Source: Pseudomonadota bacterium
Lineage (GTDB): Bacteria > Pseudomonadota > Alphaproteobacteria > 16-39-46
Assembly: GCA_018242545.1 (NCBI GenBank)
Contig: JAFEBT010000001.1
Span: forward strand, 23,180-87,179
Length of the DNA: 64,000 nt
Direction of reading: 5' to 3'
Position numbers and translations under genes: made by a program. The notes under the pieces were generated by a model, which was given only the letters and a program-made list of their open reading frames with translations, ran no database searches and had not been told where the DNA came from. Positions 31,096 through 59,723 of this stretch are shown here, piece after piece (position 1 is the first letter of the stretch; each line of letters starts with the position of its first letter).

Positions 31096-31098
31096 TTT

Positions 31099-31947
31099 TT
31101 AAGATTCCATTTTTTCAATACAAATAACTTTCTGACCATTTTTAAGCGTCAAAGGTGGAAGACCATGAACAATTATTTTTGATCCCTCTATACATGTATT
31201 TACGGGCGTATCAACCTCATCTATCCGTTGATAGATTGCCGGCAAAGGCTTTCCATCCCATGCTTTTCCATAGTCAAGCCATGTCCATATACCATCCGAA
31301 TAGACTCTTTCTGGCGCAATATCCAGAGACGCTAAATCTTTTTGGAACATATTATAGGAGAAGATTAAATTTTCTGAAGAAAAAGGAACTTGTTGTAGGT
31401 AATCTATTTCTGCTTCTTTAAGGAAAACTTCTTGAAAAGGGCTTTCTCTTCCTCCTTTTACTTCTATATAAACAACGATATCTGGAACGTGAGAACTGTG
31501 AATTCCTAAAGAACGAATATAAAAAGGATAAATGTTTCCTGTTTTACCAATAAGAGTCAGGCTCGTATCACACCCTTCTTCTTTTGCTAAAATAGAAATT
31601 AAAGAAGGACCTTTCTTTTCAACCAAAAAAAAATGATCATCTCCCAAAATAACCTCTAAAATTTCTTCCCATTTAGGCAAGGAAATCGTTGTTGTCATAA
31701 AGGGACGCGTTTTAACACGAACAACATGATCTTTTTGATACCCGACCCTATAAACACCTGCCTGTGGAGGAGCAGCAGCCCAGGCTTCTTGAGCCTGCTC
31801 TAAAGGAACACTTTCAGGACGCACAAATGCCTCTAAATCTTCTTCTTTCTCTCTTTCAATTTTTAATAAATCTTGGGGTTTTTCTCCGTCCATAGCCCAA
31901 AGACATTTTGAAAAAAGAATCATACTTACCATGATATATTTCCTCAT
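31099..31947 (-). CDS. virB9: T4SS protein VirB9/TrbG
   Basis: Signal peptide. VirB9 beta-domain pattern YRVGYQKDHVVRVKTRPFMTTTISLPKWEEILEVILGDDHFFLV... and a C-terminal conserved region. Confidence 0.7.
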   Translation of the reverse strand: MRKYIMVSMILFSKCLWAMDGEKPQDLLKIEREKEEDLEAFVRPESVPLEQAQEAWAAAPPQAGVYRVGYQKDHVVRVKTRPFMTTTISLPKWEEILEVILGDDHFFLVEKKGPSLISILAKEEGCDTSLTLIGKTGNIYPFYIRSLGIHSSHVPDIVVYIEVKGGRESPFQEVFLKEAEIDYLQQVPFSSENLIFSYNMFQKDLASLDIAPERVYSDGIWTWLDYGKAWDGKPLPAIYQRIDEVDTPVNTCIEGSKIIVHGLPPLTLKNGQKVICIEKMES

Positions 31948-32684
31948 TCCTCTTTTTCCCCACCACTTTTTTCAGAAACGCCATATGCTGTAACAATAAA
32001 TCCAAGAGGATTCATATATCGATCTTCAAATTTTACGTTTTGTGATATATAAGTAATGCTTAAAGTTGATACCCAATTTTTTTTATAAATTTCCCCACCT
32101 TCTTGATAATCTTTTCCCTGCCATTCCACTTGAACAATTCGAGGATTTTTCGAAAGTGTCGAGACTGAAAGAAGGATAACATCTCGATAGAGTTTTTTCT
32201 CTTTTCGAGATTCATAAATTCCGCCCTGATCCTTATTCATGAGAGCTTTAAAATTCTCAAAAATTTCAAAAGAACTAAACCAAAAAACTTGTTTCCAGCG
32301 ATCTGCTTCTGTTTGAAAATCAAGTGTTTCTCGCAGACGAACATAATTTCGAGCAAGGCTTTCTGTCATTACATCAAATCCTTCTTCTTGGTCTTCTATG
32401 GGCTCGATTTTGACAATTTGCTCAGATTTAGGCATTAATGTAATAAAAAAGGGAACGATTGTTTTGAGAGGAAATAAATTTATCATTAAAACAGCACAAA
32501 CAATATTTATAAAAAGGGACATCAAAAAGCCAAATCCTAAAAAACGAGCGACCCAAATAAGCATACGATATACATGGCCCGTCTCAATAATCCGTCCTTC
32601 TGTTATTAGGGTTGTTTCATTGAAAGAAGAATAACTTTGAAATTTAAAGCCTTTTAGAAGCCTTAAGAGTTTTTGAATTGTCAT
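31944..32684 (-). CDS. virB8: T4SS protein VirB8/TrbF
   Basis: Bitopic topology: short cytoplasmic N-terminus, one TM (WVARFLGFGFLMSLFINIVCAVLMI), then a periplasmic NTF2-like domain. Position between the lipoprotein and virB9. Confidence 0.65.
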   Translation of the reverse strand: MTIQKLLRLLKGFKFQSYSSFNETTLITEGRIIETGHVYRMLIWVARFLGFGFLMSLFINIVCAVLMINLFPLKTIVPFFITLMPKSEQIVKIEPIEDQEEGFDVMTESLARNYVRLRETLDFQTEADRWKQVFWFSSFEIFENFKALMNKDQGGIYESRKEKKLYRDVILLSVSTLSKNPRIVQVEWQGKDYQEGGEIYKKNWVSTLSITYISQNVKFEDRYMNPLGFIVTAYGVSEKSGGEKEE

Positions 32685-32702
32685 TTTTAAAAACTCTCTT
32701 TT

Positions 32703-32867
32703 TCAAACAAGAAAACCATTTTGATAAAAAAGTGTTCCACAGGGACACGCAGACCTTTTTAAAGAATCTGCATCAGATCCGATACCGACGGGTTCTTCTT
32801 CAGATGTTGAGCATCCTGCTGTAAATCCCATAATAATTAAAAATACAAAATGTAATTTCATTTTCTT
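32703..32867 (-). CDS. Small lipoprotein at the VirB7 position
   Basis: MKLHFVFLIIMGFTAGC... has a lipobox (TAGC), followed by a short Cys-containing mature peptide. Located between the virB6-like and virB8-like genes. The upstream ATG at 32930 is probably not the real start. Confidence 0.45.
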   Translation of the reverse strand, partial: KKMKLHFVFLIIMGFTAGCSTSEEEPVGIGSDADSLKRSACPCGTLFYQNGFLV

Positions 32868-32901
32868 CCTTTCTGACATCAGCGTTGAAACATTAAAAAA
32901 A

Positions 32902-33843
32902 TCACCAAAATTTTCTGAGATTATTCCCAAAAAGCGAAAAGGTACTTTCAGTCATTGGGAAAGAAAGCCCTTCCTGATATGAAAAACAAGAAATTTGTTT
33001 TGCAAAATAGGAAGCTTTTAAATGAAAAAAGACTGATAGAAATCCTAAAATCCAAATAGCCCAATATTGAGAAGAAAATATAAAATCTGAAATCTCTTCT
33101 GAAGCACCTTCCGGTCCAATGGGAATTAAGGGAGAAAACTTATGAAAAATCTCAATTGTAAATCCCATAGCAATTGAAGAAAACAAGAGAGTCATAGCTC
33201 CATGTAATGTAATTCGTACAGCATTTAGAAGAATTGAATGCAAAGATTTAAAGCACATAATACTATAGAGAAGAGGACAAATAGCTGTAATAATGAGAAA
33301 TGCAAATATAAACTCCAATAAAAATGCTAAAAATATACAAATAACAAAAAGATAAGGAATAATTAAAATAAAAGCCGCCAGAATTGGTTTCCAAGAAAGC
33401 CATCCTCCTTCCCCAATGAGGATGTTCCAGATCTCAAAAATAGTTTTACTTAAAGATTGATCAACAGTTAAAAGCATTCCCCGGAATGTTGGATCGGATG
33501 GAGAAATTTTTCCCAAAGTTACAATTTTTTGAGCTAAGGCTGAAATAAGTTCTAAAAAGGGAGTATGAATAAAAACCCAAAAAAAATCTGATCCCTGTAA
33601 AAGACTTTCCACAAAAACAAAAAGCAAACTTTTTTTCAAAAAATACCCAAATCGAAAATCTCCTCGTAGAATTCCTTTAAAGACAATATACCATGCCACC
33701 CAAGCTGTCACATAAGCCGTAAATAATATACGTGAAGGGGGAAGTAATGCTTTATATATACTTTGCCCATATTGCATACCAAAATCATAAAAGGCAGAAA
33801 ACATATCGCATATATAACATCGATAAGAATGGGGTCCCTCCAT
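32902..33843 (-). CDS. virB6: T4SS protein VirB6/TrbL (polytopic inner-membrane)
   Basis: 313 aa, 6+ TM helices, including the characteristic central hydrophobic block with conserved Trp (WLSWKPILAAFILIIPYLFVICIFLAFLLEF). Operon position. Confidence 0.65.
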   Translation of the reverse strand: MEGPHSYRCYICDMFSAFYDFGMQYGQSIYKALLPPSRILFTAYVTAWVAWYIVFKGILRGDFRFGYFLKKSLLFVFVESLLQGSDFFWVFIHTPFLELISALAQKIVTLGKISPSDPTFRGMLLTVDQSLSKTIFEIWNILIGEGGWLSWKPILAAFILIIPYLFVICIFLAFLLEFIFAFLIITAICPLLYSIMCFKSLHSILLNAVRITLHGAMTLLFSSIAMGFTIEIFHKFSPLIPIGPEGASEEISDFIFSSQYWAIWILGFLSVFFHLKASYFAKQISCFSYQEGLSFPMTESTFSLFGNNLRKFW

Positions 33844-34619
33844 TACACAAGCTCCCTTTTCTTGGAAGAAGTTTTTTCAAGCACAATGGGAAGATTAAAT
33901 CCATCTTTCATGTTTTGAGTTTCTAAAAGTTGAATAAGGAGTGCACGGGTTAGAATGAGTTCATGGGCTATGAAACTTAAAAGTCTATTTGTTGTTGTTG
34001 TATCTGATCTTAAATTTGTCGCTAATTCTGCTTCTTTTAGAATGAGAGAAAGATCAAAAGAGGCGCTTTTTAATGTTTCTCTTTGATGCGCAACAAAAGC
34101 TAAGCCCGTTATGATTGATTCTTTAAAATGAGATTCACGAAATTTTAAAATCTCATCTTGACATTCTTTTGATATATATTTTTTACCCTTAAAAGATCCC
34201 ACCCAAAATTTTTCAAATAAATTGCGGTAAGATAGAAAATCAAAATTTTTTTCATCTTTTTTATAAGAGCTCCCACCTGCCGAAAAAGGAAGGAGAGAAA
34301 GTCTTTCTTTTTTGAGCATTGATTCTATTTCAGAAAAATTAAAAGCTTCTCCCTTCCCTAATATATTCTGCAAGGATTCAATACCAGAGTTCATCGCTTT
34401 CATTTTACGAGCAGATTCTCTAAAAACAGATAAAAGTTGATTTGTTAATCCATATGTTGATGAGTCAAAGACGCTCAAAACTGCGCTACATGTTAAAGGA
34501 AAAAAAAGAACAAGACCTATAATGTAACTTCCTTTCTTAAAATTTCCTGCCCATAAATTTTTTAAAAAATTTTTTTTTAATAAGCTTCTAAGTAATGATC
34601 TATCCATTTTTCTCCCCAT
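33843..34619 (-). CDS. T4SS protein VirB5/TrbJ-like (secreted coiled-coil minor pilus component)
   Basis: Signal anchor (GSYIIGLVLFFPLTCSAVLSVF) followed by an alpha-helical ~220-aa domain. Location between the VirB4-like and VirB6-like genes. Confidence 0.5.
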   Translation of the reverse strand: MGRKMDRSLLRSLLKKNFLKNLWAGNFKKGSYIIGLVLFFPLTCSAVLSVFDSSTYGLTNQLLSVFRESARKMKAMNSGIESLQNILGKGEAFNFSEIESMLKKERLSLLPFSAGGSSYKKDEKNFDFLSYRNLFEKFWVGSFKGKKYISKECQDEILKFRESHFKESIITGLAFVAHQRETLKSASFDLSLILKEAELATNLRSDTTTTNRLLSFIAHELILTRALLIQLLETQNMKDGFNLPIVLEKTSSKKRELV

Positions 34620-36931
34620 AATTCTTTTAACGATATCATTAAATTAATAGGCTCTGTGCCAGATCTATAAATTTTCATATATTTTCCAATATTCTCTATA
34701 TCTACGTCCATAAAAAGGGACTCTTGAGATCTTTTTAAAAGAACCCCACGTTTCAAATGTTTTGAAAAAGAACTAACACCTTTAATAAATTGCCATTCAG
34801 AGTCCGTAAGATTAAAAGGAGCATAATCTTCTATTTTTGCATTCACGTTTTGAAATAAAAAAAGCGTAGGGCAATGCGTCAAGATGGTTTCAGAAATCGG
34901 TAATTTTAAGAGCGTCTGAGCATCTTGGAAACAAAGATTAATCGAGCCACGCAACTTACGGTGTTCTCTCAAAAATGTTTGAACTTGATGAGAAAAAAAA
35001 GAATCTTCCAGCATCGGAGCAGCTTCATCGATAAAAATGAGATGCGCCGATGCCTCTTGGCGCACTTGGCTTCGGATGCGATGCAAAATATAATCTACAA
35101 GAACACTGGAAATATATGGATTCTTAAGAATCTCTGTCATCTCAAAAGAGATTAATCTTGATGACTTAAAATTCAAACAATCATAATCCCCATTTAGAAA
35201 AGAACTATATTGGCCACAAGCCCAAAGAAACAAAGATTCTTTTAATTTTGATCCTGTATCAAAACTAAATTCAAAAACGTTCTTCAAAATGCGATCTTGA
35301 AGAGGAAGCCTAAAAAGAATATCTAATGCACGTTCTGCCATTTCAAGGAACAGCGGATCATGACATTTCCCAAGTTTAAGAATAAATTGTGATAAAAAAA
35401 ACCTATTTTCATTACTATCTTCGCACTGAAAAGGATTCAATTTAAGATCCTGACTCGAATTAAGATCAATATAATCTCCTCCTAAAGCTTGTGTAAAAAT
35501 ACGCATTCCATTAAATCGATCAAAAATAAAAGTTTTAAGTTTTTTATGACGAAGTGCGCCTCCTATTAAATGTTGAAAAAAAGTTGTTTTTCCGGAGCCG
35601 CTTGGAGCAATTGTTAAACTATGAGCAAGTGATTCTTTCTGATCTGCGACATGAAGCTGCAATGCATACGCGTTTCCTTGACTGGTTTTAAAATAACGAA
35701 GAGGACCCATTCCCCAATCACATTTGAGCAGGCCTTCTTTACTTTCATCAAAAAAAAGAAAAGTCGCGAGGTTATTTGAAAATAAATTTCGAGGACGCGC
35801 AGCTTCATCATATCCTGGAAATTTTGAAAACCATAACCATTCAATAGCGTCCATTTCATGGACTGGCTTTATCCCATAATTTAATAAAATTTTTTCCAAC
35901 ACAGCAGTATTCTGCTCAAGCTGTTTTTCCGTCGTTCCTTTTATAAAAAAAGTAAGTTGATGCTCATAAAGCGCATGATGCCCGGCCTCTAAATGTTCAA
36001 TTGCATTTTCAAATTCTTTGATTTTAAAGTTATTTTTAAAAATAAGGTTTTCTTGGGCAAGACGATATCTTAATGTTGTTCGAGCATCGAGATTTTTAAG
36101 TCCTCTACAAAGATGTAATATTTCAAACTCCAATGAAAGAGAAAGAATTTCCTGTAGAATTTCAGAACCAGCCCATTCACCCCACCCTCGAATTCCAAGT
36201 ACTTTATAAAAACATGATCTTTCTCCTTCTTTTAGCTCAATTAACCCTTTCTTAAGATTAAAAAGAACTTCTGAGCATGTTAAAATTTCGGAAATATTTT
36301 CCTGCGTGTGGTATATTTTATGCTCTTGAAAATTAACCAATCCACTTAAAAAACTTAAAAGAGGACTCTCTAAAAAATCTTTTCCTTGAAAACTATTCTC
36401 GAGCAATTGAGGATTAAAAAATGAAAGATAGTCACAGACAATTTTTGATACTTCTTCTATTTCCTTCTCATTTGCTGCTTGCACAAATAAGTAATTTTTC
36501 GTTTGATAACATGCTTCAAACTGCTGGTTCCATTTATAATGAATTTCTTGAAGAATTTCGTTTTCAAAATCTGCAAAATCTTGAATTTGAAACCGTTCTC
36601 TCTTTGTAAAAAATCTAAAAGTTGCACCTCTTTCTGCCATAACATCAAAAAAAAATTGTTTACGCGCAACGAAAAAAGATTTTTCTTCCTCTGTTTTCAG
36701 ATTAAGATCAATGCCTTTTATCTTAAAAATACGACACAATTTTCCATCTCGACATTGAATCGTTTTATTATCAGTCAATATGCGATTAAAGGGTAAAAAG
36801 TCTGAAAGATACGTCTCTTTAAAAGTAGGAATAAGGGTTTTGAATATTTTAGGGATAAATATCATTCCAAGCCCTCCTAAAAGAAAGCTCAAAAGTATAA
36901 TCTCTAATCCTATTAAAAAAACCTTTTCCAT
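34577..36931 (-). CDS. virB4: T4SS ATPase VirB4/TrbE
   Basis: 784 aa. Walker A SGSGKTTFFQHLIGG, Walker B HLIFIDEAAPML, and N-terminal membrane-associated region. The size and motifs are typical of VirB4/TrbE/CagE. Confidence 0.85.
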   Translation of the reverse strand: MEKVFLIGLEIILLSFLLGGLGMIFIPKIFKTLIPTFKETYLSDFLPFNRILTDNKTIQCRDGKLCRIFKIKGIDLNLKTEEEKSFFVARKQFFFDVMAERGATFRFFTKRERFQIQDFADFENEILQEIHYKWNQQFEACYQTKNYLFVQAANEKEIEEVSKIVCDYLSFFNPQLLENSFQGKDFLESPLLSFLSGLVNFQEHKIYHTQENISEILTCSEVLFNLKKGLIELKEGERSCFYKVLGIRGWGEWAGSEILQEILSLSLEFEILHLCRGLKNLDARTTLRYRLAQENLIFKNNFKIKEFENAIEHLEAGHHALYEHQLTFFIKGTTEKQLEQNTAVLEKILLNYGIKPVHEMDAIEWLWFSKFPGYDEAARPRNLFSNNLATFLFFDESKEGLLKCDWGMGPLRYFKTSQGNAYALQLHVADQKESLAHSLTIAPSGSGKTTFFQHLIGGALRHKKLKTFIFDRFNGMRIFTQALGGDYIDLNSSQDLKLNPFQCEDSNENRFFLSQFILKLGKCHDPLFLEMAERALDILFRLPLQDRILKNVFEFSFDTGSKLKESLFLWACGQYSSFLNGDYDCLNFKSSRLISFEMTEILKNPYISSVLVDYILHRIRSQVRQEASAHLIFIDEAAPMLEDSFFSHQVQTFLREHRKLRGSINLCFQDAQTLLKLPISETILTHCPTLFLFQNVNAKIEDYAPFNLTDSEWQFIKGVSSFSKHLKRGVLLKRSQESLFMDVDIENIGKYMKIYRSGTEPINLMISLKELWGEKWIDHYLEAY

Positions 36932-39660: not shown

Positions 39661-39987
39661 ATGAAAAAAACCATAATGTTAAAACAAACTCTCGCTGTAT
39701 GTTTTCTTATTTTATGCTCTTCCTTAAAAAGTACCGCTTTTAATAACGAAGACATAGCGGCATGTAATAAATGCCAAGCTCTCAATGCATGTCAAAAATG
39801 CAGAGCCATCTATCACTCTTATATCTCAGCCTTAAGTGATTGTCATAACACCAAAACAAATAATAAGGCAAATGCAGCTTGCCGTAAAGGTTGCGAAACG
39901 AAATATACTCAACTTTTTAATGCATGTATAAAAAAATCGGTCCCTCCAGAGTTTCAAGGGCAATGCACCTTTGTTAGCCCTGAATAA
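39661..39987 (+). CDS. Small secreted cysteine-rich protein (10 Cys), unknown function
   Basis: Signal peptide MKKTIMLKQTLAVCFLILCSSLKSTA, then paired-Cys motifs (CNKCQALNACQKC, CRKGC). Confidence 0.45.
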   Translation: MKKTIMLKQTLAVCFLILCSSLKSTAFNNEDIAACNKCQALNACQKCRAIYHSYISALSDCHNTKTNNKANAACRKGCETKYTQLFNACIKKSVPPEFQGQCTFVSPE

Positions 39988-40291: not shown

Positions 40292-41815
40292 ATGATTTTT
40301 ACATCCTCTTTGCGTTCTTTAAAAACAGGACTCTCTCTTCTTTTATTCTTCTTTGGAAGCTTAGGTTTTTATGAGCGTCTTTCTGCAGAGACTTTAAAAG
40401 AAGCAATTGCACTTGCTTATCAAACCAACCCAACTCTTGCCTCGGCTCAAGCGGGAACAAAAGCAACAGCTGAACTTCTCGCTCAAGCAAACGCAGGTTG
40501 GCGCCCTACAGCTCAACTCATCGGATCTGTTGATCAAGAGTATAAAGATACGGCCCATTCTTCTTTAGCCGGAAATTCAGGATTTACAAGAAGAGATGGA
40601 ACGAGAGCTGGACTTGAGATTGCTCAAAATGTTTATAGTGGAGGTGCAACAGAAGCCAACGTTCAAATGAGAAAAGCAGAAGTTCAAGCAACGATCGCAG
40701 GATACAGAAAAACAGAACAAGACCTCCTTCTTGCAGTTATTAAAGCTTATTTAGAAGTTTTAAGAAATCAAGCTATTCTCGATCAAACACAAAAACATCT
40801 TTTACGTTTAAAAAAAGAATTTGAACAAGGAAAAGCACGCTTCGACCTTCAAGATATTACTTTAACAGATCTTGCTCAAATAGAAGCAGACCTTGCACAG
40901 GCTCAATCTAATCTTATAAAAGCAGAGGGTGATCTTGAGTCTGCACAAGCTGAATACGTAGGTGTTGTTGGTAAAATGCCTGATCTTTTAATATTTCCAG
41001 AAGCCCCTCTTTTTCTTCCAAAGACAAAAGAAGAAGCGTTTGAAATTGCTCTGAATCAAAATCCTGATTATATCAAAAGTCAATTTGAAGAAGACTCTTA
41101 CAAAAATAATATTGATATTGCTCTTGCATCAATGCGTCCTTCTGTTGATGTAAAACTTGCGCTTACAAGAAACGAAAATAATGACAGCTTTGCAAAAAGA
41201 AGTCGTGTTTATGATGGTGTTGCAACAGCATCTGTGAAAGTTCCCTTGGATATTTCGGGAGACTCTCAATCAAAAGTCCGAAAAGCACGTCTTGAGGCTT
41301 CTCAAAAGCGTCTTACACGCAAAGCTATACGTGATAAGCTTTCAGCAACTGTTTCCCAAAAAATGGATACTTTAACAACCACACAATCTCAAATCATCCG
41401 CTTTAAAGAACTCGTAAAATTCAAAAAAATTGCAAGAGATGGTATGGCGCTGGAAGAAGAAGTTGGAGCCCGTACCGTTAACGACCGTCTAAAAGCTGAA
41501 GATGAATATTATGAAGCAGAAGTTGCCCTTATTGACGCACGCGTAAAAGAACTTATCTCTCATTTTGAGCTTCTCTCGGAAATGGGAGAACTTACACTCG
41601 CCCGTCTTGACGTTCCTGTCATGCCCTATAATCCTGATTCTTATGTCAATGAAGTATATTGGGCTCCTTATAATCTTTCTGTTGAAGATGACACGCATTC
41701 CCTAAAAGGCATTTCAGATGGGACAAAAAATCCTGAAAAAGAAAAAAAGATTGAGGAAATAAAAGATAAAGAAGAACAAGAAACAATATTGGAAGAGTTG
41801 GAAAAAATAAAATAG
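40292..41815 (+). CDS. tolC: TolC-family outer-membrane efflux/type I secretion protein, with a Lys/Glu-rich C-terminal tail
   Basis: Signal peptide. Two-repeat alpha-helical/beta-barrel pattern of TolC (LKEAIALAYQTNPTLASAQ..., LLAVIKAYLEVLRNQAIL..., second repeat DLESAQAEYV...). Tail KEKKIEEIKDKEEQETILEELEKIK. Confidence 0.8.
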   Translation: MIFTSSLRSLKTGLSLLLFFFGSLGFYERLSAETLKEAIALAYQTNPTLASAQAGTKATAELLAQANAGWRPTAQLIGSVDQEYKDTAHSSLAGNSGFTRRDGTRAGLEIAQNVYSGGATEANVQMRKAEVQATIAGYRKTEQDLLLAVIKAYLEVLRNQAILDQTQKHLLRLKKEFEQGKARFDLQDITLTDLAQIEADLAQAQSNLIKAEGDLESAQAEYVGVVGKMPDLLIFPEAPLFLPKTKEEAFEIALNQNPDYIKSQFEEDSYKNNIDIALASMRPSVDVKLALTRNENNDSFAKRSRVYDGVATASVKVPLDISGDSQSKVRKARLEASQKRLTRKAIRDKLSATVSQKMDTLTTTQSQIIRFKELVKFKKIARDGMALEEEVGARTVNDRLKAEDEYYEAEVALIDARVKELISHFELLSEMGELTLARLDVPVMPYNPDSYVNEVYWAPYNLSVEDDTHSLKGISDGTKNPEKEKKIEEIKDKEEQETILEELEKIK

Positions 41816-44996: not shown

Positions 44997-45509
44997 ATGT
45001 TTAAAAAAGTAACATTTCAAATACTTATGACAATATTAATTCTTTGGCATAGCACATCTATGATCATAGCACCCTCTCCATCAAGTCAGTTAACGGATGG
45101 CCTTTATTCTGTTTTTGGAGGATATATAGAAACTTTTGGATTATTTTTAAAGTGGGGTTTTTTTGCTCCCAACCCAGGGAAAATGAAAACTATTGATTTT
45201 ATAATAATAGATAAATTAAACAAAGAACATAAGGTGAATCCGTTAAAAATTCTTAAACAATCTGATTCTACGTATTTTAGACATATGGATCTCATGAGAA
45301 ATAGCGCTCGATATATTCACTTGTACGGACCTGCACTCACCCAATATGTTTGTAAAACTTATCCAAGTAATTACCCCAAAAAAATAAAAATTCAAGTAGC
45401 TATACAATCTCAGATCCCTCCTAAAAAATATACAAGCAAAATAAATCTTTTAGATCAAAAAGAGAATTTTAACACTTATACATATTCTTGCAGTACGTTA
45501 GAAAAATGA
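44997..45509 (+). CDS. Hypothetical membrane-anchored protein upstream of/overlapping the HTTM gene
   Basis: 170 aa with an N-terminal TM/signal anchor (FQILMTILILWHSTSMIIAPS). Its stop overlaps the next gene's start, suggesting an operon. Confidence 0.4.
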   Translation: MFKKVTFQILMTILILWHSTSMIIAPSPSSQLTDGLYSVFGGYIETFGLFLKWGFFAPNPGKMKTIDFIIIDKLNKEHKVNPLKILKQSDSTYFRHMDLMRNSARYIHLYGPALTQYVCKTYPSNYPKKIKIQVAIQSQIPPKKYTSKINLLDQKENFNTYTYSCSTLEK

Positions 45510-46834
45510 TGGCACAACATAAACCTTTTTTTAGGTGGATTCATTCTGGTACAACTATTTGGCAACAGTGCTGGTTTTATGGATCGGACACACTTTCCTT
45601 AGAAGTTATTCGCATTGGGTTAGCTTTTATTTTGTTTATTAATTACACATCTTTTAGTTTAGAAGAGTTAAAGTTTTTTTATACGGATATGGGAATTCTC
45701 CCCATAAATTTTAATGAAAATTATTTAATTTTAGGAAGATTTTCACTATTATATTATACAACATCTCTTTGGCAATTTTATTTGTTTTATAGCGTTTTTC
45801 TCTTTGCCTGTTTTTGTTTGATAATTGGATGGCATACTTCTCTTGTAAAATGGCTCGTTTTAGCAGGGCAAATTAGCTTTCTCTACCGATGCCCTTTGAT
45901 CTATTATGGACTTGATTGCCTTTCCTGTAATCTTTTATTAATTTTATGTTTTGCTCCTATTGGAACCTCCTTAAGTCTTGATCGTGCAAGATATCTTCGG
46001 CGTCTTAAACATAAATATGGTATTGAATCTTGGCAGCCTCCTCCTAAAGGCCCTTGGACATCAGCTTGTATTCGACTCATGCAACTACAAATGGCAATTG
46101 CTTTTTTCTATGCCGGTATTTATAAAATACAAGGAGTTGCATGGGGAAGCGGAGAGGCTGTTTGGTTAGCTTTAACACACGCTGAATTTAATAATATTTC
46201 TCTCATTTTATTTTCTAAATATTTTTGGATTGTTAATTTATTAACTTATTATACATTATTCCTAGAATTATCATACCCATTCCTTATTTGGGAAAGAAAG
46301 ACACGTCCTTTCTATTTAATAGGAGCTATTTTACTTCATTTAGGGATCGCAACAATGATGGGTCTTTATCTTTTTTCAGGAATGATGATTTTTGGGCATT
46401 TATCTTTTGTTCCGAGACAATGGTATAGATCTTTAAAATTAAAGTATAAAAATTTAATTTTACCAATTGAAATTATTTATGATGGACACTGCAATTTTTG
46501 TTTACATTCAATGATTTTTCTTCTTTCTTTTGATGGATTTAATCAATGTTGTTATAGAAACTATAGAACAAATCCTTCTCCTTTATTAAAGGAGGAAGAT
46601 CAAGATAAAGAGATACATATCATTTCTAATAATGCTATTTTATCAGGATTTGATGCTTATCGGTATCTTGTATTACATATTCCAGGCTTATGGTGGCTTG
46701 TGCCTGCTTTTTATATTCCTTTTTTAAGTAAGTTTGTGGGCCGACCTTTATATAGATGGATTGCTTCTCGGCGTGCTTCTATATCGGTATGTTTTATAAA
46801 CCATTCTCTGATAAAAGAACAGGATATTGAGTGA
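45488..46834 (+). CDS. HTTM-domain (vitamin K-dependent gamma-carboxylase-like) membrane protein fused to a C-terminal DCC-family (DUF393) thiol-disulfide oxidoreductase domain
   Basis: Multiple TM helices with an HTTM-like N-terminal half (LEVIRIGLAFILFINY...). C-terminal IIYDGHCNFCLHSMIFLL...YRYLVLHIPGLWWLVPAFYIPFLSKFVGRPLYRWIASRR matches the DCC1-like YDG.C..C family. Confidence 0.55.
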   Translation: MQYVRKMMAQHKPFFRWIHSGTTIWQQCWFYGSDTLSLEVIRIGLAFILFINYTSFSLEELKFFYTDMGILPINFNENYLILGRFSLLYYTTSLWQFYLFYSVFLFACFCLIIGWHTSLVKWLVLAGQISFLYRCPLIYYGLDCLSCNLLLILCFAPIGTSLSLDRARYLRRLKHKYGIESWQPPPKGPWTSACIRLMQLQMAIAFFYAGIYKIQGVAWGSGEAVWLALTHAEFNNISLILFSKYFWIVNLLTYYTLFLELSYPFLIWERKTRPFYLIGAILLHLGIATMMGLYLFSGMMIFGHLSFVPRQWYRSLKLKYKNLILPIEIIYDGHCNFCLHSMIFLLSFDGFNQCCYRNYRTNPSPLLKEEDQDKEIHIISNNAILSGFDAYRYLVLHIPGLWWLVPAFYIPFLSKFVGRPLYRWIASRRASISVCFINHSLIKEQDIE

Positions 46835-46843
46835 AATAAGATT

Positions 46844-49800
46844 ATGTCACTAGAAAATAATAAATTTTTTGATTATGATAAAAATATAGAAGTAATAAAT
46901 CATATAAAATTTACGCCTCGTGAAATAGATATTATAGCATGTATTTTATGTGGAAGAACAGCTAAAAAAGATATTGCTTTTATTTTATCTATTCAGCCGC
47001 GAACTGCTGAAACCCATACCCGAAATATTATGCATAAAATAAGGTGTAATGGATGGGGAGGCATCAGAGACTTTATAGAAAAAACTGGATATAGTGATCT
47101 TATAAGACATCACTATACCTCTCTTCTTCTTCAAAAAGAATTTAATCATTGTTTAAGACAAATTTTCTTACTCATAAAAAAAGAAGAAAATATATTAGAT
47201 CTGCAATTTTTTTCAGACATAAAAAATTCAGATGGTTTATTTTTTAGAATCTTGAAAGATCTAAGAGATATGGGTATTAATGTTCATGTGAGAGAAGATA
47301 AGAATTCTTTTGATATCCATAATTATAGTGTTTTTTTTATTACTGCTGGGACTATAAAAAAAATATGTATGCTCCTTCAAGATCCAACGTTTTTATCAAA
47401 AAATCATATTTTTATCCTTTGGGATAAAAGTCTAATCTTAGAAGATTTTCCTGATTTAAAAAATATTTCTTATTTAGATTTTAAAAGCCAAAATTATTAT
47501 TTTTCTTTTTTCTATTTTTTAGAAAAATTTATATCTCCTTCTGTCGTAGAGAATATATTTTTTGAGTTTAAAAGAGAGTATAAAAAATTTTTCAATTCCT
47601 CTGAATGTGCTCAGTTTAATTTTTCTTCCGAAGAACACATACATAAAAAAAAAGAAATTTCAGACAACATTTATATGGATGCTGTTAAAAATAAAAAAAA
47701 TTATTTTATGATTTTATTTTTGTGCATGATTATTTTAAGCGTATTTCTTTTTATTTTTACGCAAAATAATCAAAAAATAAAAATTAGCCCCTTATCAAAA
47801 AAAGATTTGTCTATGAGATCTGAATTGATTGTTCCAATAGAAAGTGTTTTTCTAAAGCGTTATGACTTAATCAAAAAAATGAATGAAGCGTTAAAAAGTC
47901 AACATAAAATACGTATAATTGCCCTTGTTGGAATGGGAGGGGTTGGAAAAACCACGATCGCACGTTATTTTGGAAAAACTGATCAAAGCTCTATTGTATA
48001 TGAGCTAAATGCTGAAACAAAAAAAAATCTTATTAATTCATTTGAAGAATTAGCTTACAAGATAGCCAAGACTCCGGATAAGAAAAAAGAACTAGAGATC
48101 ATTCAAAAAATTCAAAATATAGAATTAAAAGAAAAAAAATTGATTTATTTTGTGCAAGAACAGTTAAGAGAACACCCCAATTGGCTTCTCATTTTTGATA
48201 ATGTTCAGACTATATCAAACATTAAAAAGAATTATCTTCCTCAAGATTCAGAAATATGGGGGTCTGGAAAAATAATTATCACAACACGTGATAGTACAAT
48301 AAAAAATACAAATTACATAGAACCTCAAAATATTATTGAAATTGGAGAATTAAATAAAGAAGAATCTTTAATGCTTTTTAGTAAAATATTTTTCAACAAG
48401 GAATCAAATAAATTAACATTAGATCAAAGAGAAAAATGTTTAGAATTTCTTAAAAATATTCCTCCTTTTCCTTTAGATATTTCTATTGCTGCTTATTATA
48501 TTAAAAATGAACAGTTAACTTATGATCAGTACATACATAGAATTAACCAATACACTAAATTTTTTGATAAAACTCAAGAAAATCTCTTAAAAGAGATAAG
48601 CGACTCCACAAAAACACGCTTTGGAATAATTACATCTTCCCTTGAAAAATTTATAAATATAAATCCAGATTTCAAAGAGCTCTTATTATTTATTGTACTT
48701 TTAGATTCACAAAATATTCCTAAAAATTTAATAGCACTCTATAAAGATGAGCCAAGTATTGAGCAGCTTTTATATTATTTAAGAAAAAATGGTTTTATCA
48801 CCAAGGTATCTTCTATTGAAAATGGAGAAGAAGCTCCTCTATTCTCCATTCATCGATCATCACAAGAGATTATTTTAGCTTCTCTTAAAAATATACTAAC
48901 AGAAGATGAAAGAAAGAGATGTTTATGTCAAGTAATAGAAGCTATAAAAATTTATCATAAGATGTATTTAAAAAAGAATTGCAGAAATATTATTTTACTT
49001 ATTCCTCACATAGAAAAATTGCAGCAAAATTTAAATAAAATTTTAATATCATCTAAAGATATAGAGCTTTGTAAAATAGAAACTTTAATAGCGCTTGGAA
49101 ATTCTCATCGATATTGTACCCAAAATTGTGAAGCCGTTAGAAGTTATTTTTTAGAAATTTTAGAAATAAAAGATATCAAGAAAAAAATTTCTTCTTATAC
49201 TTTATTAACAATCTTTGCAGACTTGGGATGGGCTTCTTATATTTTAGGTCTTTTCGATCAAGCCATTTTCTATTGTCAAGAAAGCATAAAATTGTGCAAA
49301 CGAAACTTAGAATCTGAAGAAATGGAGGCGCAAAACCTTTTAAACACGGCAATTTCTTACTACCAGAAAAATGAAAAAGAGAGCTTTGAAAAAAGTTGTT
49401 CATATTATAAAAAAGCTCTTTCTATAGCATTGAAAATAAAGGATGAGAATCTTAAAAACTCGTTTATTGTAACTATATACAATGATCTTTCATTTTTATA
49501 TAGAACCACGTACCTCCATAAAAAAGAAACATTGATTGGTAAAAAATATGTGCAGAAGGCATTAGATTTATTAAAGTCTAATGAGCTTTTTCATCTAACC
49601 TATAAAAAACTTCCAGAAGAAAAAATTAAAGATATTTTGAAAGCACGTTATGCAATGGGGCAAGTTTATTGTAGACTTGGACAATATGAAAAAGCTTTGA
49701 AAGAAGGATGCATAGAAGAGCAATATATCATTAATTTTATTGAATCTACTGGGAATAAAATTAGTCTTACCATAGAAAAGCCTCTACTCGCTGAGAGTTT

Positions 49801-50317
49801 TGGAGAGTCTTTTTTAAGGCTTAATCGTCTTGAAGAAGCTGAGCTCCAATTAACGCAAGCTATAAAAGCTTTTGAAGATTTGTGGGGACCTCGTGTTATT
49901 GCTCCACGTGTTTATAGAGCTGAGATTTATATTAGAAAAGGACAATTTAAAGAAGCTTATGAAGATTGCTTAGTTGTTTTTAAAACGCAAAGAAAATCAA
50001 AAAACAATTATATAAACCTAATGTTTTTTATTAATTATTATCATGCCGCTATTATAAAATATAAAGAAAAAGATTTTTTTCAGTCCTCAGAATATTTTAG
50101 AGATTTTTTTAAAAATATAAGAGTATTTTGTAAGATGTTCTTAGATAAAAACCAGTATAAATTCCTTGAATCAGAGAAAGTTTTTGAAGACATTACATTT
50201 GATAAAAATAAAGCAGAAAAAGACATAAAAGACTATCTTAAAAGAAGTGTTAAGATTTTTTCAGAAATTTATGGGCCTTCACATTCTTTTATAACTGATT
50301 ACGTTACAAAAAATTAA
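46844..50317 (+). CDS. Second full-length LuxR-HTH / hydrophobic helix / NB-ARC / TPR STAND protein (paralog of 19561..22992)
   Basis: LuxR HTH FTPREIDIIACILCGRTAKKDIAFILSIQPRTAETHTRNIMHKIRCNG. Hydrophobic helix FMILFLCMIILSVFLFIFT. Walker A ALVGMGGVGKTTIARYFG. WLLIFDNVQT. ITTRD. FPLDISIAAYYIKNEQLTYDQY. C-terminal TPR-like units (ALGNSHRYCTQNCEAVRSYF, DLGWASYILGLFDQAIFYCQESIKL). Confidence 0.8.
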   Translation: MSLENNKFFDYDKNIEVINHIKFTPREIDIIACILCGRTAKKDIAFILSIQPRTAETHTRNIMHKIRCNGWGGIRDFIEKTGYSDLIRHHYTSLLLQKEFNHCLRQIFLLIKKEENILDLQFFSDIKNSDGLFFRILKDLRDMGINVHVREDKNSFDIHNYSVFFITAGTIKKICMLLQDPTFLSKNHIFILWDKSLILEDFPDLKNISYLDFKSQNYYFSFFYFLEKFISPSVVENIFFEFKREYKKFFNSSECAQFNFSSEEHIHKKKEISDNIYMDAVKNKKNYFMILFLCMIILSVFLFIFTQNNQKIKISPLSKKDLSMRSELIVPIESVFLKRYDLIKKMNEALKSQHKIRIIALVGMGGVGKTTIARYFGKTDQSSIVYELNAETKKNLINSFEELAYKIAKTPDKKKELEIIQKIQNIELKEKKLIYFVQEQLREHPNWLLIFDNVQTISNIKKNYLPQDSEIWGSGKIIITTRDSTIKNTNYIEPQNIIEIGELNKEESLMLFSKIFFNKESNKLTLDQREKCLEFLKNIPPFPLDISIAAYYIKNEQLTYDQYIHRINQYTKFFDKTQENLLKEISDSTKTRFGIITSSLEKFININPDFKELLLFIVLLDSQNIPKNLIALYKDEPSIEQLLYYLRKNGFITKVSSIENGEEAPLFSIHRSSQEIILASLKNILTEDERKRCLCQVIEAIKIYHKMYLKKNCRNIILLIPHIEKLQQNLNKILISSKDIELCKIETLIALGNSHRYCTQNCEAVRSYFLEILEIKDIKKKISSYTLLTIFADLGWASYILGLFDQAIFYCQESIKLCKRNLESEEMEAQNLLNTAISYYQKNEKESFEKSCSYYKKALSIALKIKDENLKNSFIVTIYNDLSFLYRTTYLHKKETLIGKKYVQKALDLLKSNELFHLTYKKLPEEKIKDILKARYAMGQVYCRLGQYEKALKEGCIEEQYIINFIESTGNKISLTIEKPLLAESFGESFLRLNRLEEAELQLTQAIKAFEDLWGPRVIAPRVYRAEIYIRKGQFKEAYEDCLVVFKTQRKSKNNYINLMFFINYYHAAIIKYKEKDFFQSSEYFRDFFKNIRVFCKMFLDKNQYKFLESEKVFEDITFDKNKAEKDIKDYLKRSVKIFSEIYGPSHSFITDYVTKN

Positions 50318-53729: not shown

Positions 53730-54240
53730 AGGGCAGCACGTGCTGCCAGGAGATTAAGATTAACAAAAAGAGAAACGAAAGAGGTTTTCATCATAAGAGT
53801 TATTTTTACCCCCCCCTCTTTTAAACGTCAACAAAAAAAGAGCGTTTTCTTCTCTTCTCTTAATCTTTTCTATATATGAAAGTGGGGGCATTCTGTTGCC
53901 CGGTGCCCCCTAACCGCGAAGTGCTTAACGCTTAAGCAGCTGCAGCAACTGCAGGTGCATTGTCGTTCATAGCTTCTACTCCAAATGCATTATCATTGTC
54001 TGCATTTACAAATTAGCCCGTTTCGGCGGATACCATACCGAGCGAAAGATAAGCCTTTACCACGTACGTCGATCCTATTTCACCCCCAAAGAAACTTAAG
54101 AATCCTTAAGATTTATTAACCAGCTAAAAACTTAGCAAGTCATTTCCGATTTGGTGGAGGTGCCGGGTACCGCCCCCGGGTCCGTCCCGCTTATTCTACT
54201 AACCGTTTATCGCCATAGTTGGTTAACCCAACACCTTTAA
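53730..54240 (-). ncRNA. ssrA: tmRNA (ssrA), circularly permuted two-piece alphaproteobacterial type: acceptor piece upstream, coding piece downstream
   Basis: Minus strand 5'->3': ...GGACGGACCCGGGGGCGGTACCCGGCACCTCCACCA (T-arm, acceptor 3' strand, CCA; 3' end at 54152). A ~64-nt intervening segment follows. Then GGGGGTGAAATAGGATCGACG (canonical tmRNA 5' end, starts 54087). The acceptor stem GGGGGTG/CACCTCC contains the G3·U wobble pair that AlaRS requires. A tag ORF ends ...AMNDNAPAVAAAA-TAA (stop at 53932-53934). A GC hairpin follows, and a palindromic terminator GGCAGCACGTGCTGCC sits at 53731-53750. Outer boundaries are approximate. Confidence 0.8.
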
Positions 54241-54368
54241 TATAAGCCTTCTTTCTCTAAATTTAAAGGGAAATCATAAAAAATTTTTTATAAAAAAATA
54301 TCGACATAAAGCAATTTTCTTTCTATCTTAATGTAAAAAAATAATTTTTAGAAATGGTTTAAGGAAAA

Positions 54369-54771: not shown

Positions 54772-54892
54772 AACCTTTATGTTTTATGAAAATCGATTCT
54801 TTTATTAAAAAAAGCTTTCCTATATTTTTTGACTCTCAAAATATATTAAAAACATAAGAAAAGGCACATTAAATTTGGAATGGAAAAACAAA

Positions 54893-55153
54893 ATGAATAT
54901 ATCTATTTCTTATCCTGAAATTAAAAAGCACCTGAAAAAGAATTTTGATCGCGTATGTAATGATCATATCCCTCTTCTTGTTACACGAAAAAAAGGAAAA
55001 AATGTTATTGTGATTTCTGAAGGTGAGTATAGATCCCTGCAAGAAACTATTTATCTCTGCCAATCTCCAAAGAATCTTTCGAGACTTCTTGAAGCTCTTC
55101 ATCGGACAAATGGGCGTTCTTTCGAAGAGGTTAAAACAGAACTTAAAATTTAA
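54893..55153 (+). CDS. yefM: Phd/YefM-family antitoxin (no adjacent toxin gene)
   Basis: MNISISYPEIKKHLKKNFDRVCNDHIPLLVTRKKGKNVIVISEGEYRSLQETIYLCQSPKNLSRLLEAL aligns along its length with E. coli YefM (ISYSEARQNL...[41 protein letters not shown]). Confidence 0.8.
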   Translation: MNISISYPEIKKHLKKNFDRVCNDHIPLLVTRKKGKNVIVISEGEYRSLQETIYLCQSPKNLSRLLEALHRTNGRSFEEVKTELKI

Positions 55154-57459: not shown

Positions 57460-57747
57460 TTAGATCATTCCAAGCGCATGCTTATAAAGATCAAGGAGCT
57501 CTTCTTGTTCTGCCAAAGTTTCCGCATCTTGTTTTCGAAGTTTCAAGATTTGACGAATGACCTTAACATCAAAGCCAGCTGATTTTGCTTCATCAAAAAC
57601 ATCTTTTACAAAATCCTGTAATTGAGCCTTTTCAACTTCGAGACGTTCGAGACGTTCAATAAAGCTTTTCAAACGATCTGCTGCAATACCCCCGACTTGA
57701 GGCTTCAAAGGATCGGAAGAAGAAGGAGACGACTCTGTCATGGACAT
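57460..57747 (-). CDS. gapR: GapR/DUF2312 nucleoid-associated protein (alphaproteobacteria-specific)
   Basis: LKSFIERLERLEVEKAQLQDFVKDVFDEAKSAGFDVKVIRQILKLRKQDAETLAEQEELLDLYKHALG is a close match to Caulobacter GapR (QLKSIIDRVERLEVEKAEI...GFDVKVLKKVVRIRKQD...ILDLY). Confidence 0.85.
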   Translation of the reverse strand: MSMTESSPSSSDPLKPQVGGIAADRLKSFIERLERLEVEKAQLQDFVKDVFDEAKSAGFDVKVIRQILKLRKQDAETLAEQEELLDLYKHALGMI

Positions 57748-57852: not shown

Positions 57853-58117
57853 TCAATCAGAAGCACAATTTATCTCTTTACAACCAGCAGAAAAGCAATG
57901 ACCGCTAACACCCACACACACTGCTGGACCCCACGTTCCTGCTAAAGTCTTTTCGCAGAGGTTTTTTAAGTCAATAGTAGACGGATACAGATTTTCTAGG
58001 CTACATATTCTTCCACTCGATAAATTACAACATTTATGTTCATACACATCCCAAGCAAGTCCAATCGCTTATACACACAATTTTACATCCAAGTACGAAT
58101 AATTTTTTAGAAATCAT
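57853..58117 (-). pseudogene. Small secreted Cys-rich peptide, paralog 1 (signal peptide and Cys-rich body in different frames)
   Basis: MISKKLFVLGCKIVCISDWTCLGCV-stop (58117 downward), followed in another frame by ...YEHKCCNLSSGRICSLENLYPSTIDLKNLCEKTLAGTWGPAVCVGVSGHCFSAGCKEINCASD (ORF 57853..58047). The leader is near-identical to paralog 2. Confidence 0.45.
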
Positions 58118-58373
58118 TTTTTTCTCTTTTTTGAATCATCAAATTTCTTAAAGCAATATCTGCTTTTAGTGAATTATTTCTTTATCGCTTAATTTAATTT
58201 TTCCTTAAGAAAAATAACTCTTCTTTTTAAGCAACAACCCCCGATAACATTCTTTTAAAATCTCTTGAACCTCTGAAATTTCATAAAAAAAGTTTACAAA
58301 AAACATTTCCTGAAGGTGGGTCTCGTCTTGCTTTAGCCACGTCATCTAAAATTGCTACTTTTTAAGATAAAGA

Positions 58374-58598
58374 CTAGAAGGATTCCCCAGTCCAATCATT
58401 ATAACAACCCACATCTTGACACTGACCAGCTCCGCTTCCTCCATGGGCGTTACAGCTCTTCTCTGATTCAGCAACACAAGACCCGTTATAGAAACTTGGT
58501 AAAGAATTAGGCCCATCACAACAATAAGATGCTAAAACATTTCCAACTGGTCCAATGATGGCTAGACATCCAAGTACCAGTAATTTTTTAGAAATCAT
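58374..58598 (-). CDS. Small secreted Cys-rich peptide, paralog 2
   Basis: MISKKLLVLGCLAIIGPVGNVLA|SYCCDGPNSLPSFYNGSCVAESEKSCNAHGGSGAGQCQDVGCYNDWTGESF. AAGGAG RBS upstream. 5' region similar to that of paralog 1. Confidence 0.5.
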   Translation of the reverse strand: MISKKLLVLGCLAIIGPVGNVLASYCCDGPNSLPSFYNGSCVAESEKSCNAHGGSGAGQCQDVGCYNDWTGESF

Positions 58599-59207
58599 TT
58601 TTTTTCTCCTTTTTTGGTCATCAATCTTTTGAAATGACAATTGTTTTCTTACCAGGCTTTATATTTTTACCTTTCTTCTTTATTAACCCTATATGTTACT
58701 CTTATATTTAAGAATAGCAAGTGTAGTTTTAGTTTTAAAGGGTTTAAATTCACCACTCGACAAGATAAATAAAGAACCATAATTTAAAAATGGGAACAAG
58801 AGCCTATGCTTGTTCTGTAAGCACTTCTGCAATCTCAGGAACCCTCTCTCATCCCATAGAAAGATTTAATAAAGGGATTTGAAAGGAGCCTACTAATCTA
58901 ACACTCTTTGGATTTTTCATCTCTCGTTCTTCCTGGCAAAATTGATATCCAGTCCCACTCTTAACATCCTGATAGACTTAAACGGTTGCTGCTTAATCTG
59001 CTATTCCTTCAATATGCGCTTTATGTAATCCTATCTCTCGTTTTTTTAGGTCTTCTTCAATCACTCCAGAAACATGCGCAACTCCCCTCTTTAATTCTCT
59101 CATTCTTTCTTTCCTTTTCTTTCACAGGGAGGGGTTTTATCTTTTTTCAATTATTTTCTTTATTCTGTCGAGTGTTGGACCTCTGGGTATGTCTTTTCAT
59201 AAAATTC

Positions 59208-59723
59208 TTATCTTTCTAGGGTGATTGCAACGCTCGTAACTCCATTGTGATCATTTAAAAGCATGCTATTGTTTAAATTATCCATAGAATTCAAAAACGT
59301 TTCCCAATCCTCTGATTTAAAATTATTAGCCGTTAAAACAGCCTGCCCTTCATCGGCTATATTAACTTGGGTTTTTAAGCCGTCTATTATTTCAAATTCT
59401 TTTAGGAGCCGATCACAGGTATGGGGATCGGCTGTAATATCTACCCTTTTTATTTTTGTATTTTTTAGCTCGGTATCCTTGTGAATAGCGTCCCAATCAA
59501 TTTTAGCCAATGTATAAACACAGCCACCAACACAAGATTTTTTATAAATAATTTTTTTATCTCCATTTGATGCAATTGTTGTTAAACGCAAAAGAGATAA
59601 GGTCCTTAAAGTTTCTGCTTTTGGTTCCATCTCATCATGTGCTTTCACGTGAGAAGCCAAGTATGAAAAAGAGACTCCCATGAGGACGCCTACAAAAAAG
59701 ATCTTCCGTGATATCTGGATCAT
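59208..59723 (-). CDS. Hypothetical secreted protein with CxxC-like motif (SCVGGC)
   Basis: Signal peptide (IFFVGVLMGVSFSYLASHVKA). No confident family assignment. Confidence 0.35.
   Translation of the reverse strand: MIQISRKIFFVGVLMGVSFSYLASHVKAHDEMEPKAETLRTLSLLRLTTIASNGDKKIIYKKSCVGGCVYTLAKIDWDAIHKDTELKNTKIKRVDITADPHTCDRLLKEFEIIDGLKTQVNIADEGQAVLTANNFKSEDWETFLNSMDNLNNSMLLNDHNGVTSVAITLER

Follow-up and report, generated by a model that had tools for sequence, protein, structure and literature searches.

The heat-stable enterotoxin STb of Escherichia coli provides a Gram-negative precedent for a small, cysteine-rich peptide that is exported via the Sec pathway and oxidized by DsbA in the periplasm; STa and STb are made as precursors of 71-72 amino acids (aa), with a mature form of 48 aa and about 5.2 kDa in case of STb and with release via TolC (PMC6356903). 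Here, we describe two adjacent genes for small cysteine-rich peptides, copy A and copy B, in a 64-kb stretch of contig JAFEBT010000001.1 (hereafter the window, within which the copy number and the neighbors of these genes were read) from an uncultured, low-GC alphaproteobacterium that is represented by a metagenome-assembled genome (MAG). Our best explanation, to which we assign a probability of roughly 60%, is that copy A encodes a lineage-restricted, exported disulfide mini-protein and that copy B is a decaying, non-orthologous partial paralog (Table 1). Like STa and STb, copy A specifies a short precursor with a predicted Sec-type signal peptide and a small, cysteine-rich mature part, and it has no dedicated neighbor gene. 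Where the toxic core of STa starts with Y-C-C-E, copy A has S-Y-C-C-D. Unlike the two toxins, however, copy A matches no Pfam or NCBIfam profile (E <= 1), shares no sequence similarity with them and has a different cysteine framework, CC-x13-C-x7-C-x10-C-x4-C in its mature part, compared to CC-CC-C-C within about 13 residues in STa and four cysteines in STb. STa furthermore has a pro-region, and the genes of these enterotoxins reside on plasmids or transposons of an enteric pathogen, which also sets them apart from copy A. Given this lack of similarity in both sequence and framework, we treat the heat-stable enterotoxins as an analogy and not as members of the same family.

Copy A is an intact gene (ATG at 58598, stop codon at 58374-58376) with the product MISKKLLVLGCLAIIGPVGNVLASYCCDGPNSLPSFYNGSCVAESEKSCNAHGGSGAGQCQDVGCYNDWTGESF, which is deposited at NCBI as "hypothetical protein" MBS0184812.1 (JSS34_00415) of a MAG labelled Proteobacteria bacterium. 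Its start codon is preceded by AAAAAAGGAG-N8-ATG, a strong Shine-Dalgarno sequence at the correct spacing, and a weak terminator-like hairpin picked up by a terminator scan (58371-58393) overlaps its stop codon. Scanning GTDB species genomes with the neighboring GapR protein led to a locus (L002) of Alphaproteobacteria bacterium 16-39-46, hereafter the sister species, in which an 84-aa open reading frame (ORF) directly upstream of gapR encodes the protein P0002, MTYKKLLIIGCVAVIGPVGSASAGSASAGSASAFYCCWGPNQDCFNGSCKAQSEESCKAKGGKGSGNCSSESQSCWNDLKGESF. This protein shares 58% identity (E = 4e-11 against 1.84e9 proteins) and the syntenic position upstream of gapR with copy A, keeps all six mature cysteines as well as the motifs YCC.GPN, NGSC, SE.SC, GG.G.G.C and C[YW]ND..GESF, and occurs with unchanged sequence and conserved synteny in four MAG assemblies from NCBI plus one from SRA. 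The 5' region of copy A is likewise similar between the species (80% identity over 97 nt to L002:9497-9592), while an Rfam scan of the peptide locus including the 5' block of copy A gave no match. By the method of Nei and Gojobori, copy A and its ortholog differ at nonsynonymous and synonymous sites by dN = 0.34 and dS = 1.07 (dN/dS = 0.31), and gapR of the same pair of genomes has dN = 0.037 and dN/dS = 0.025, indicating that the peptide is constrained yet evolves about ten-fold faster than its neighbor. Judged from these sequence comparisons (the syntenic ortholog, the conserved cysteine framework, the dN/dS value and the identical sequence in five assemblies), copy A is a genuine, lineage-restricted gene. 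For the first-pass annotation of this DNA, a lack of similar peptides in related genomes would have spoken against the genes; copy A is instead kept in a related species under purifying selection.

Table 1. Features of the peptide locus and its immediate neighbors (positions in the window).
Feature	Position	Strand	Basis and remarks
Copy A, intact 74-aa precursor gene	58374..58598	-	ORF list, sequence, NCBI record, ortholog, dN/dS
Copy A, predicted Sec/signal peptidase I signal peptide, residues 1-23	58530..58598	-	Rule-based reading; MISKK / LLVLGCLAIIGPVG / NVLA, predicted cut between VLA and S
Copy A, predicted mature peptide	58377..58529	-	51 aa, 5.3 kDa, isoelectric point 4.05, six Cys
Copy A, conserved 5' block, Shine-Dalgarno and about 40 nt upstream	58599..58638	-	TTGATGACCAAAAAAGGAG-N8-ATG; matches L002
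Spacer between copies A and B, unconserved	58159..58373	-	Dissimilar to L002 and other loci
Copy B, 5' block with weakened Shine-Dalgarno	58118..58152	-	AAAAAAGAG versus AAAAAAGGAG in copy A
Copy B, leader-frame ORF, 25 codons	58040..58117	-	MISKKLFVLGCKIVCISDWTCLGCV, then stop; begins MISKKLFVLGC; DNA of codons 1-11 94% identical to copy A
Copy B, frame-disrupting segment	58066..58084	-	19 nt, AAAATTGTGTGTATAAGCG, versus 9 nt, CTAGCCATC, in copy A; alignment and frames
Copy B, body in the +1 frame	57853..58068	-	71 open codons, 8 Cys; homolog search empty
gapR (DUF2312/GapR_DNA-bd), conserved downstream anchor	57460..57747	-	Own conserved upstream region from 57841
p171, orphan 171-aa protein with signal peptide (JSS34_00420), upstream neighbor	59208..59723	-	Sister species lacks it at this site

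We infer export of copy A from a rule-based reading of its signal peptide that considered the charge of the n-region, an h-region of at least seven residues and small, uncharged residues at -3/-1. Its n-region carries a charge of +2 (two lysines) and is followed by about 14-18 hydrophobic residues and small residues at -3/-1, and the signal of the ortholog (MTYKK, then LLIIGCVAVIGPVG, then (SASAG)n and ASA ahead of a predicted mature F) reads the same way under the rules for Sec and signal peptidase I. For copy A, this supports the previously suggested layout of a Sec-type leader and a cysteine-rich core, though the number of seven to nine cysteines given for the peptides at that time included Cys11 of the leader and comes down to six (copy A) and eight (copy B) in the mature part. 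After export of the 74-aa product by Sec, signal peptidase I would cleave behind VLA(23), and the mature part would fold extracytoplasmically as an acidic mini-protein of 5.3 kDa with a CC-C-C-C-C arrangement, for which the six conserved cysteines imply three disulfide bonds. The mature product of the ortholog would similarly comprise 51 aa with an isoelectric point of 5.06. We picture copy A as a stand-alone extracytoplasmic peptide that would reside in the periplasm and might possibly be released. In the c-region of the ortholog's signal peptide (L002:9590-9640; also in the loci L027-L031), we note a perfect 15-nt tandem repeat in three units encoding (GSASA)x3, which is identical in five assemblies and absent from copy A.

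Searches beyond the sister species came back nearly empty. When 1.84 billion representative proteins were searched exhaustively by phmmer with copy A, only copy A itself, the ortholog and one spurious match to a repetitive protein of 1905 aa were recovered, and no public assembly matched copy A in exact-sequence look-ups. A fully degenerate DNA pattern of the leader (MISKKLxVLGC) had no match in GTDB species genomes or in JGI metagenome contigs, the alignment of copy A and ortholog, used as a profile on metagenome contigs, gave 34 pattern matches of which none was confirmed, and tblastn of both copies against 72,556 plasmids found nothing. The peptides match no Pfam or NCBIfam entry at E <= 1, a PDB sequence search gave only two sub-threshold matches (E about 4), and the literature on the sister MAG and on cysteine-rich peptides in Holosporales held nothing relevant. 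By sequence, copy A makes up a new family, though its general kind is familiar, and it is modestly interesting rather than exceptional; if exported and disulfide-bonded as proposed above, it would represent a new two-species orphan family among the few small, cysteine-rich exported peptides of Gram-negative bacteria.

The region upstream of gapR differs between the strains that could be compared. At the DNA level, copy A is the ortholog of the single gene in the sister species, which has the A type only, and both the B unit (58358-57841) and a 1.28-kb stretch holding p171 are extra DNA in the window relative to L002. In a third lineage with about 81% nt identity over gapR-rlmN, no peptide gene was found within the approximately 450 nt readable upstream of gapR (L034), and the sequence (L034:1-1035) continues into an RVT_1-like ORF (reverse transcriptase, possibly of a group II intron). 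Upstream of gapR, short-read contigs of related strains, including this lineage, repeatedly stop after 90-230 nt (L032:1-218, L033:1-226, L035:1-132, L036:1-92, L037:1-196 and L001:1-199), and in L001, a closer strain with 90% nt identity, the sequence beyond the gapR promoter is again a different one. The contig breaks and the RVT_1-like ORF suggest that strains are heterogeneous at the site of the peptide gene or that a repeated mobile element is located there. Because the sequences upstream of gapR differ from strain to strain, we regard this site as variable among strains and the peptide gene as accessory and subject to turnover.

This pattern bears directly on the idea that the peptide is a housekeeping mini-protein of the periplasm or envelope, with a role in stress, metal or envelope homeostasis, that is kept through its neighborhood of envelope genes. 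The conserved neighbors of the peptide gene are indeed largely related to the envelope (two lipoproteins, MlaEF, an SH3 protein and an IalB-like protein, besides GapR and RlmN), and synteny with the sister species is maintained. However, the gene is absent from the readable region of the third lineage, which belongs to the same clade, and from every other genome and metagenome that was searched, and neither fast evolution relative to its neighbors nor variable copy number is a property of core envelope components, so that we consider a housekeeping role rather unlikely, if still deserving some weight. Under the reading that we prefer, an exported accessory peptide, copy A would have been gained or lost between close relatives and would evolve about ten times faster than its housekeeping neighbor, which is more in keeping with a factor of the envelope or of interactions than with a core component; a role in host interaction is possible.

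Fast turnover between strains would also be expected of a bacteriocin or other antimicrobial locus, in which copies A and B would be Sec-dependent, disulfide-stabilized toxins against competing bacteria. Sec-dependent bacteriocins exist, and enterocin P and other Sec-dependent bacteriocins of class II as well as defensin-like bacteriocins such as laterosporulin are small, ribosomally made disulfide peptides with a Sec leader or none, among which paralogs occur; their producers are Gram-positive, and the peptides are cationic, contain family motifs (for example, YGNGV) and are encoded next to an immunity gene. Our two copies resemble them as small, putatively exported, cysteine-rich peptides with a common leader and different cores. 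All hallmarks of these bacteriocins are nevertheless absent: most such toxins are cationic, whereas the peptides described here are anionic (isoelectric points of 4.0-5.5); no bacteriocin model of Pfam or NCBIfam is matched, no double-glycine leader as in class II bacteriocins or microcins is present, and the CxxxC and CxC motifs of cysteine-stabilized (CS-alpha-beta) defensins are lacking in copy A, copy B and the ortholog. In neither species is the peptide gene accompanied by a conserved gene for immunity, ABC export or processing, and no transporter, immunity, protease or modification gene linked to it was found in the window or at the loci L027-L031. An ORF of 46 aa in the spacer between the two copies (58205-58345) was considered as an immunity gene and rejected, being unconserved, without a ribosome-binding site (RBS) and without a Pfam match; it is probably spurious. 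In addition, Sec alone would bring a peptide only to the periplasm of a diderm bacterium. Membership in bacteriocin or defensin-like families, which the first-pass annotation had suggested, is unsupported given the anionic peptides and the lack of linked immunity, export or modification genes, in line with the lack of any PDB family match, and we regard an antimicrobial locus as unlikely.

A different fate of the exported product is raised by the conserved L-x-x-G-C at residues 7-11, which resembles a lipobox (L-[VI]-[LI]-G-C), so that signal peptidase II might cut before Cys11 and a linker might tether the cysteine-rich domain of a small lipoprotein to the membrane. The L/I-x-G-C sequence is kept in both copies and the ortholog, and the Ser/Ala/Gly-rich (GSASA)x3 stretch that follows in the latter resembles the tether of bacterial lipoproteins; compared with the lipobox consensus [LVI][ASTVI][GAS]C, I-I-G-C of the ortholog fits, whereas copies A and B (V-L-G-C) have an atypical residue at position -2. 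PROSITE rule PS51257 requires the lipobox cysteine to lie at positions 15-35. In copy A, however, only ten residues with a hydrophobic stretch of five precede the cysteine, far shorter than in functional signals and different from the about 15-35 residues with an h-region of at least seven before the cysteine that characterize lipoprotein signals. Use of an upstream in-frame TTG start would add charged residues only, and the hydrophobic region runs on for another 12 residues beyond Cys11 and ends in a canonical -3/-1 site, i.e., with a full signal of the signal peptidase I type. Since five hydrophobic residues are too few for a lipoprotein signal, we prefer processing by signal peptidase I and think that a lipoprotein is doubtful.

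Copies A and B both lie on the minus strand 481-482 nt apart and have an RBS region and the first 11 codons (MISKKL[L/F]VLGC) in common, with a 39-nt block of 95% identity (spacing 481 nt), the shared leader DNA ATGATTTCTAAAAAATTA..GTACTTGGATGT and an A-rich Shine-Dalgarno block upstream of it. A search of the window with the 33-nt leader pattern gave exactly two matches, compared to none in 100 shuffles. Together with the 39-nt block and the common Shine-Dalgarno block, this confirms the original observation, also from the list of ORFs, of two adjacent minus-strand genes with a near-identical leader and similar RBS region. It agrees only in part with the tandem duplication that had been proposed at the same time: when the two loci are aligned at the nucleotide level, they can be aligned over the 5' approximately 120 nt only, from the untranslated region (UTR) to the CC doublet, so that leader and RBS are doubled, whereas the mature regions and 3' flanks show chance-level similarity and the sister species has no B-type gene. 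Behind the CC doublet, the observed score was reached by 452 of 1000 shuffles for the DNA and by 707 of 2000 shuffles for the protein (BLASTP E = 0.2), and the 5' flanks (457/1000 shuffles) are unrelated as well; similarity of the 3' flanks is marginal (36/1000 shuffles).

Within the alignable part, identity changes stepwise. Codons 1-11 are more similar between copies A and B (31/33 positions) than between copy A and its ortholog (25/33), but the reverse is true for the UTR from -40 to -1 (27/40 versus 33/40), and identity between the copies from the indel to the CC doublet is about 64% as counted on the alignment. The segment that disrupts the frame of copy B begins exactly where the block of high identity ends. 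These two features suggest a short tract of conversion or recombination, and the comparison would fit a conversion-like tract from copy A into an older, different paralog whose imprecise end broke the frame. In this scenario, the first approximately 35-40 coding nucleotides of copy B would have been homogenized recently with copy A, either by short-tract gene conversion or by illegitimate recombination, with the junction of the homogenized tract coinciding with the frame-breaking indel.

In copy B, the Shine-Dalgarno sequence has lost one G (AAGAG versus AAGGAG in copy A), and the leader frame that opens with the ATG at 58117 ends at a TGA (58040-58042). The alignment of both copies is anchored around the indel by GGATGT (codons 10-11) and ATTGGAC, with 9 nt between them in copy A and 19 nt in copy B, and ATTGGAC reads Ile-Gly in the frame of copy A and in the body frame of copy B; the defect may correspond to an insertion of 10 nt or to the combination of three additional codons (9 nt) with an indel of 1 nt. 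The break is thus located inside the hydrophobic core of the signal peptide, directly after codon 11, and not between signal peptide and body as had been assumed. Directly behind a TAA (58069-58071), the body of copy B, AIGLAWDVYEHKCCNLSSGRICSLENLYPSTIDLKNLCEKTLAGTWGPAVCVGVSGHCFSAGCKEINCASD, begins with AIGLAWDVYEHKCCNLSS and ends with NCASD and a stop codon, with cysteines arranged as CC-x7-C-x15-C-x12-C-x6-C-x4-C-x4-C. Neither a word-index search nor comparison with related loci nor the plasmid tblastn revealed a relative of this body. An open frame of 71 codons has a probability of about 0.004-0.006 per given frame, with 3.7% of shuffles of the segment having such an open frame in any of three frames, and its eight cysteines compare to 2.9 expected from composition. 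Since the body frame is still open and enriched in cysteine, copy B seems to have been coding until recently, and a recently inactivated gene is the likeliest reading of its sequence. We therefore share the earlier view that one of the copies is probably decaying, given the broken frame, the weakened Shine-Dalgarno sequence and the lack of a slippery site; copy B would be a non-orthologous paralog that keeps a different, eight-cysteine core out of frame.

The same open and cysteine-rich body frame could alternatively mean that copy B yields a full-length product after all, either by programmed +1 frameshifting or because an error in sequencing or assembly introduced the frame break; consensus errors are possible in a MAG. 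A +1 shift would need to fall within 58040-58068, where the two frames overlap. None of the nine codons of this overlap (AGC GAT TGG ACT TGC TTG GGA TGT GTA) re-pairs in the +1 frame, and no prfB-like CUU-UGA, no A-rich slippery run after the body-frame TAA and no stimulator is present there; the sole AAAA run lies upstream of this TAA. The programmed frameshift site that the first-pass annotation had put up for checking is hence absent from the overlap of the frames. With regard to an error, no homopolymer is found at the site of the break, and exact runs in common between the two copies comprise at most 24 nt with copy-specific substitutions between these runs and the junction, which argues against a repeat-induced mis-join. 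The Shine-Dalgarno sequence would remain weakened in any case and any repaired leader would carry a Lys in its hydrophobic core, making a functional full-length copy B quite improbable. Finally, it is very improbable that the ORFs are not genes but chance open frames in AT-rich intergenic DNA: though they have no family match and no structure and occur in two species only, this is at odds with the strong Shine-Dalgarno sequence, syntenic ortholog, cysteine framework and dN/dS of copy A as well as with the identity in five independent assemblies.

Several points nevertheless weigh against copy A as an exported disulfide mini-protein next to a decaying, partly converted copy B. Export and cleavage of copy A are predictions from rules for signal peptides, and the ortholog has a seventh, unpaired cysteine. 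An AlphaFold2 model of the mature peptide from the alignment of two sequences was unusable (predicted local distance difference test, pLDDT, of 52), and a Foldseek search of the PDB with it was empty, so that we claim no fold. The frame break of copy B could be an assembly or consensus artifact of the MAG, and the proposed conversion draws on small counts (33 and 40 nt).

The combination of a shared leader with different cores is reminiscent of conotoxins, plant nodule-specific cysteine-rich (NCR) peptides and defensins, in which a conserved 5'/signal module is joined to cores that differ in sequence and cysteine framework. The CC-C-C-C-C arrangement of copy A corresponds to conotoxin framework IV. 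These families are large and eukaryotic and often have propeptides and introns, in contrast to two bacterial copies of which one is broken, and the likeness is one of pattern only, with no homology found by phmmer or PDB sequence search. It is tempting, if speculative and on balance unlikely, to view the locus as part of a system of conserved leaders and exchangeable cysteine-rich cores in which a module of 5' UTR and signal peptide is copied by short-tract recombination onto unrelated cores. If true, this would give rise to a repertoire of diversifying mini-proteins that are exported to act on competitors or a eukaryotic host, and it would be a prokaryotic counterpart of the conotoxin and NCR families in an alphaproteobacterium with VirB and NB-ARC/tetratricopeptide repeat (TPR) proteins; more cores with this leader would then be expected elsewhere in the genome and in relatives, with the site upstream of gapR as a hot spot. 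In any case, a conserved leader with unrelated cores at a strain-variable site offers a small, testable example of how peptides of this type may diversify. The practical value is limited to flagging copy A, so far a hypothetical protein, as a candidate for studies of peptide chemistry or symbiosis.

The orphan protein p171 upstream of the peptide genes has no homologs among 5.8 billion clusters, and its single-sequence AlphaFold2 model (pLDDT of 61; alpha/beta fold) had only Foldseek matches with TM < 0.32 and no credible match in the PDB; a link between p171 and the peptides is unproven. Inside p171 (59537-59586, minus strand), 52 nt resemble the peptide leader and UTR (77% identity to L002, E = 7e-4), and a 20-nt A-rich motif just downstream of it (59135-59154, minus strand) was considered as a third UTR-like copy and rejected with no leader following it; both were judged to be chance similarities of AT-rich DNA.

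Elsewhere in the window, a VirB-type type IV secretion cluster (26925-36931, minus strand) encodes VirB4/CagE-like, TrbL/VirB6, VirB8, VirB9/CagX and VirB10/TrbI proteins as well as a VirB11-like ATPase, with a 52-aa lipoprotein ORF (32703-32861) at the position of VirB7. Two proteins of more than 1100 aa combine a LuxR/GerE helix-turn-helix domain with an NB-ARC ATPase and TPRs (19561-22992, minus strand, and 46844-50317, plus strand), and their genes sit in stretches of very low GC content (about 0.28-0.34). This gene content of the lineage hints at an association with another organism and is compatible with a host-associated lifestyle, but it does not tie the peptides to a host. The sole thiol-redox protein seen in the window is an HTTM domain fused to a DCC1-like thiol-disulfide oxidoreductase domain (45488-46834, plus strand), about 11 kb from the peptide genes and with no demonstrated link to them. 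Another small, cysteine-rich ORF that is unrelated to both copies (39661-39987, plus strand) encodes 108 aa with a signal peptide and nine mature cysteines including CNKCQALNACQKC; it has no Pfam match and lies just upstream of a TolC-like OEP gene (40292-41815).

Closer to gapR, the window holds an alphaproteobacterial two-piece (permuted) transfer-messenger RNA gene (53881-54271, minus strand; Rfam RF01849, 236 bits). A Phd/YefM-family antitoxin ORF (54875-55153, plus strand) converges on rlmN and overlaps its 3' end by 4 nt, with no partner toxin seen among ORFs of at least 90 aa; in the sister species, another part of the syntenic block carries a TacA/acetyltransferase pair instead. The sister species furthermore encodes a 597-aa AAA-ATPase-like/PD-(D/E)XK protein between mlaE and a glycine-zipper lipoprotein gene (L002:6017-7810, minus strand) that is absent from the window.

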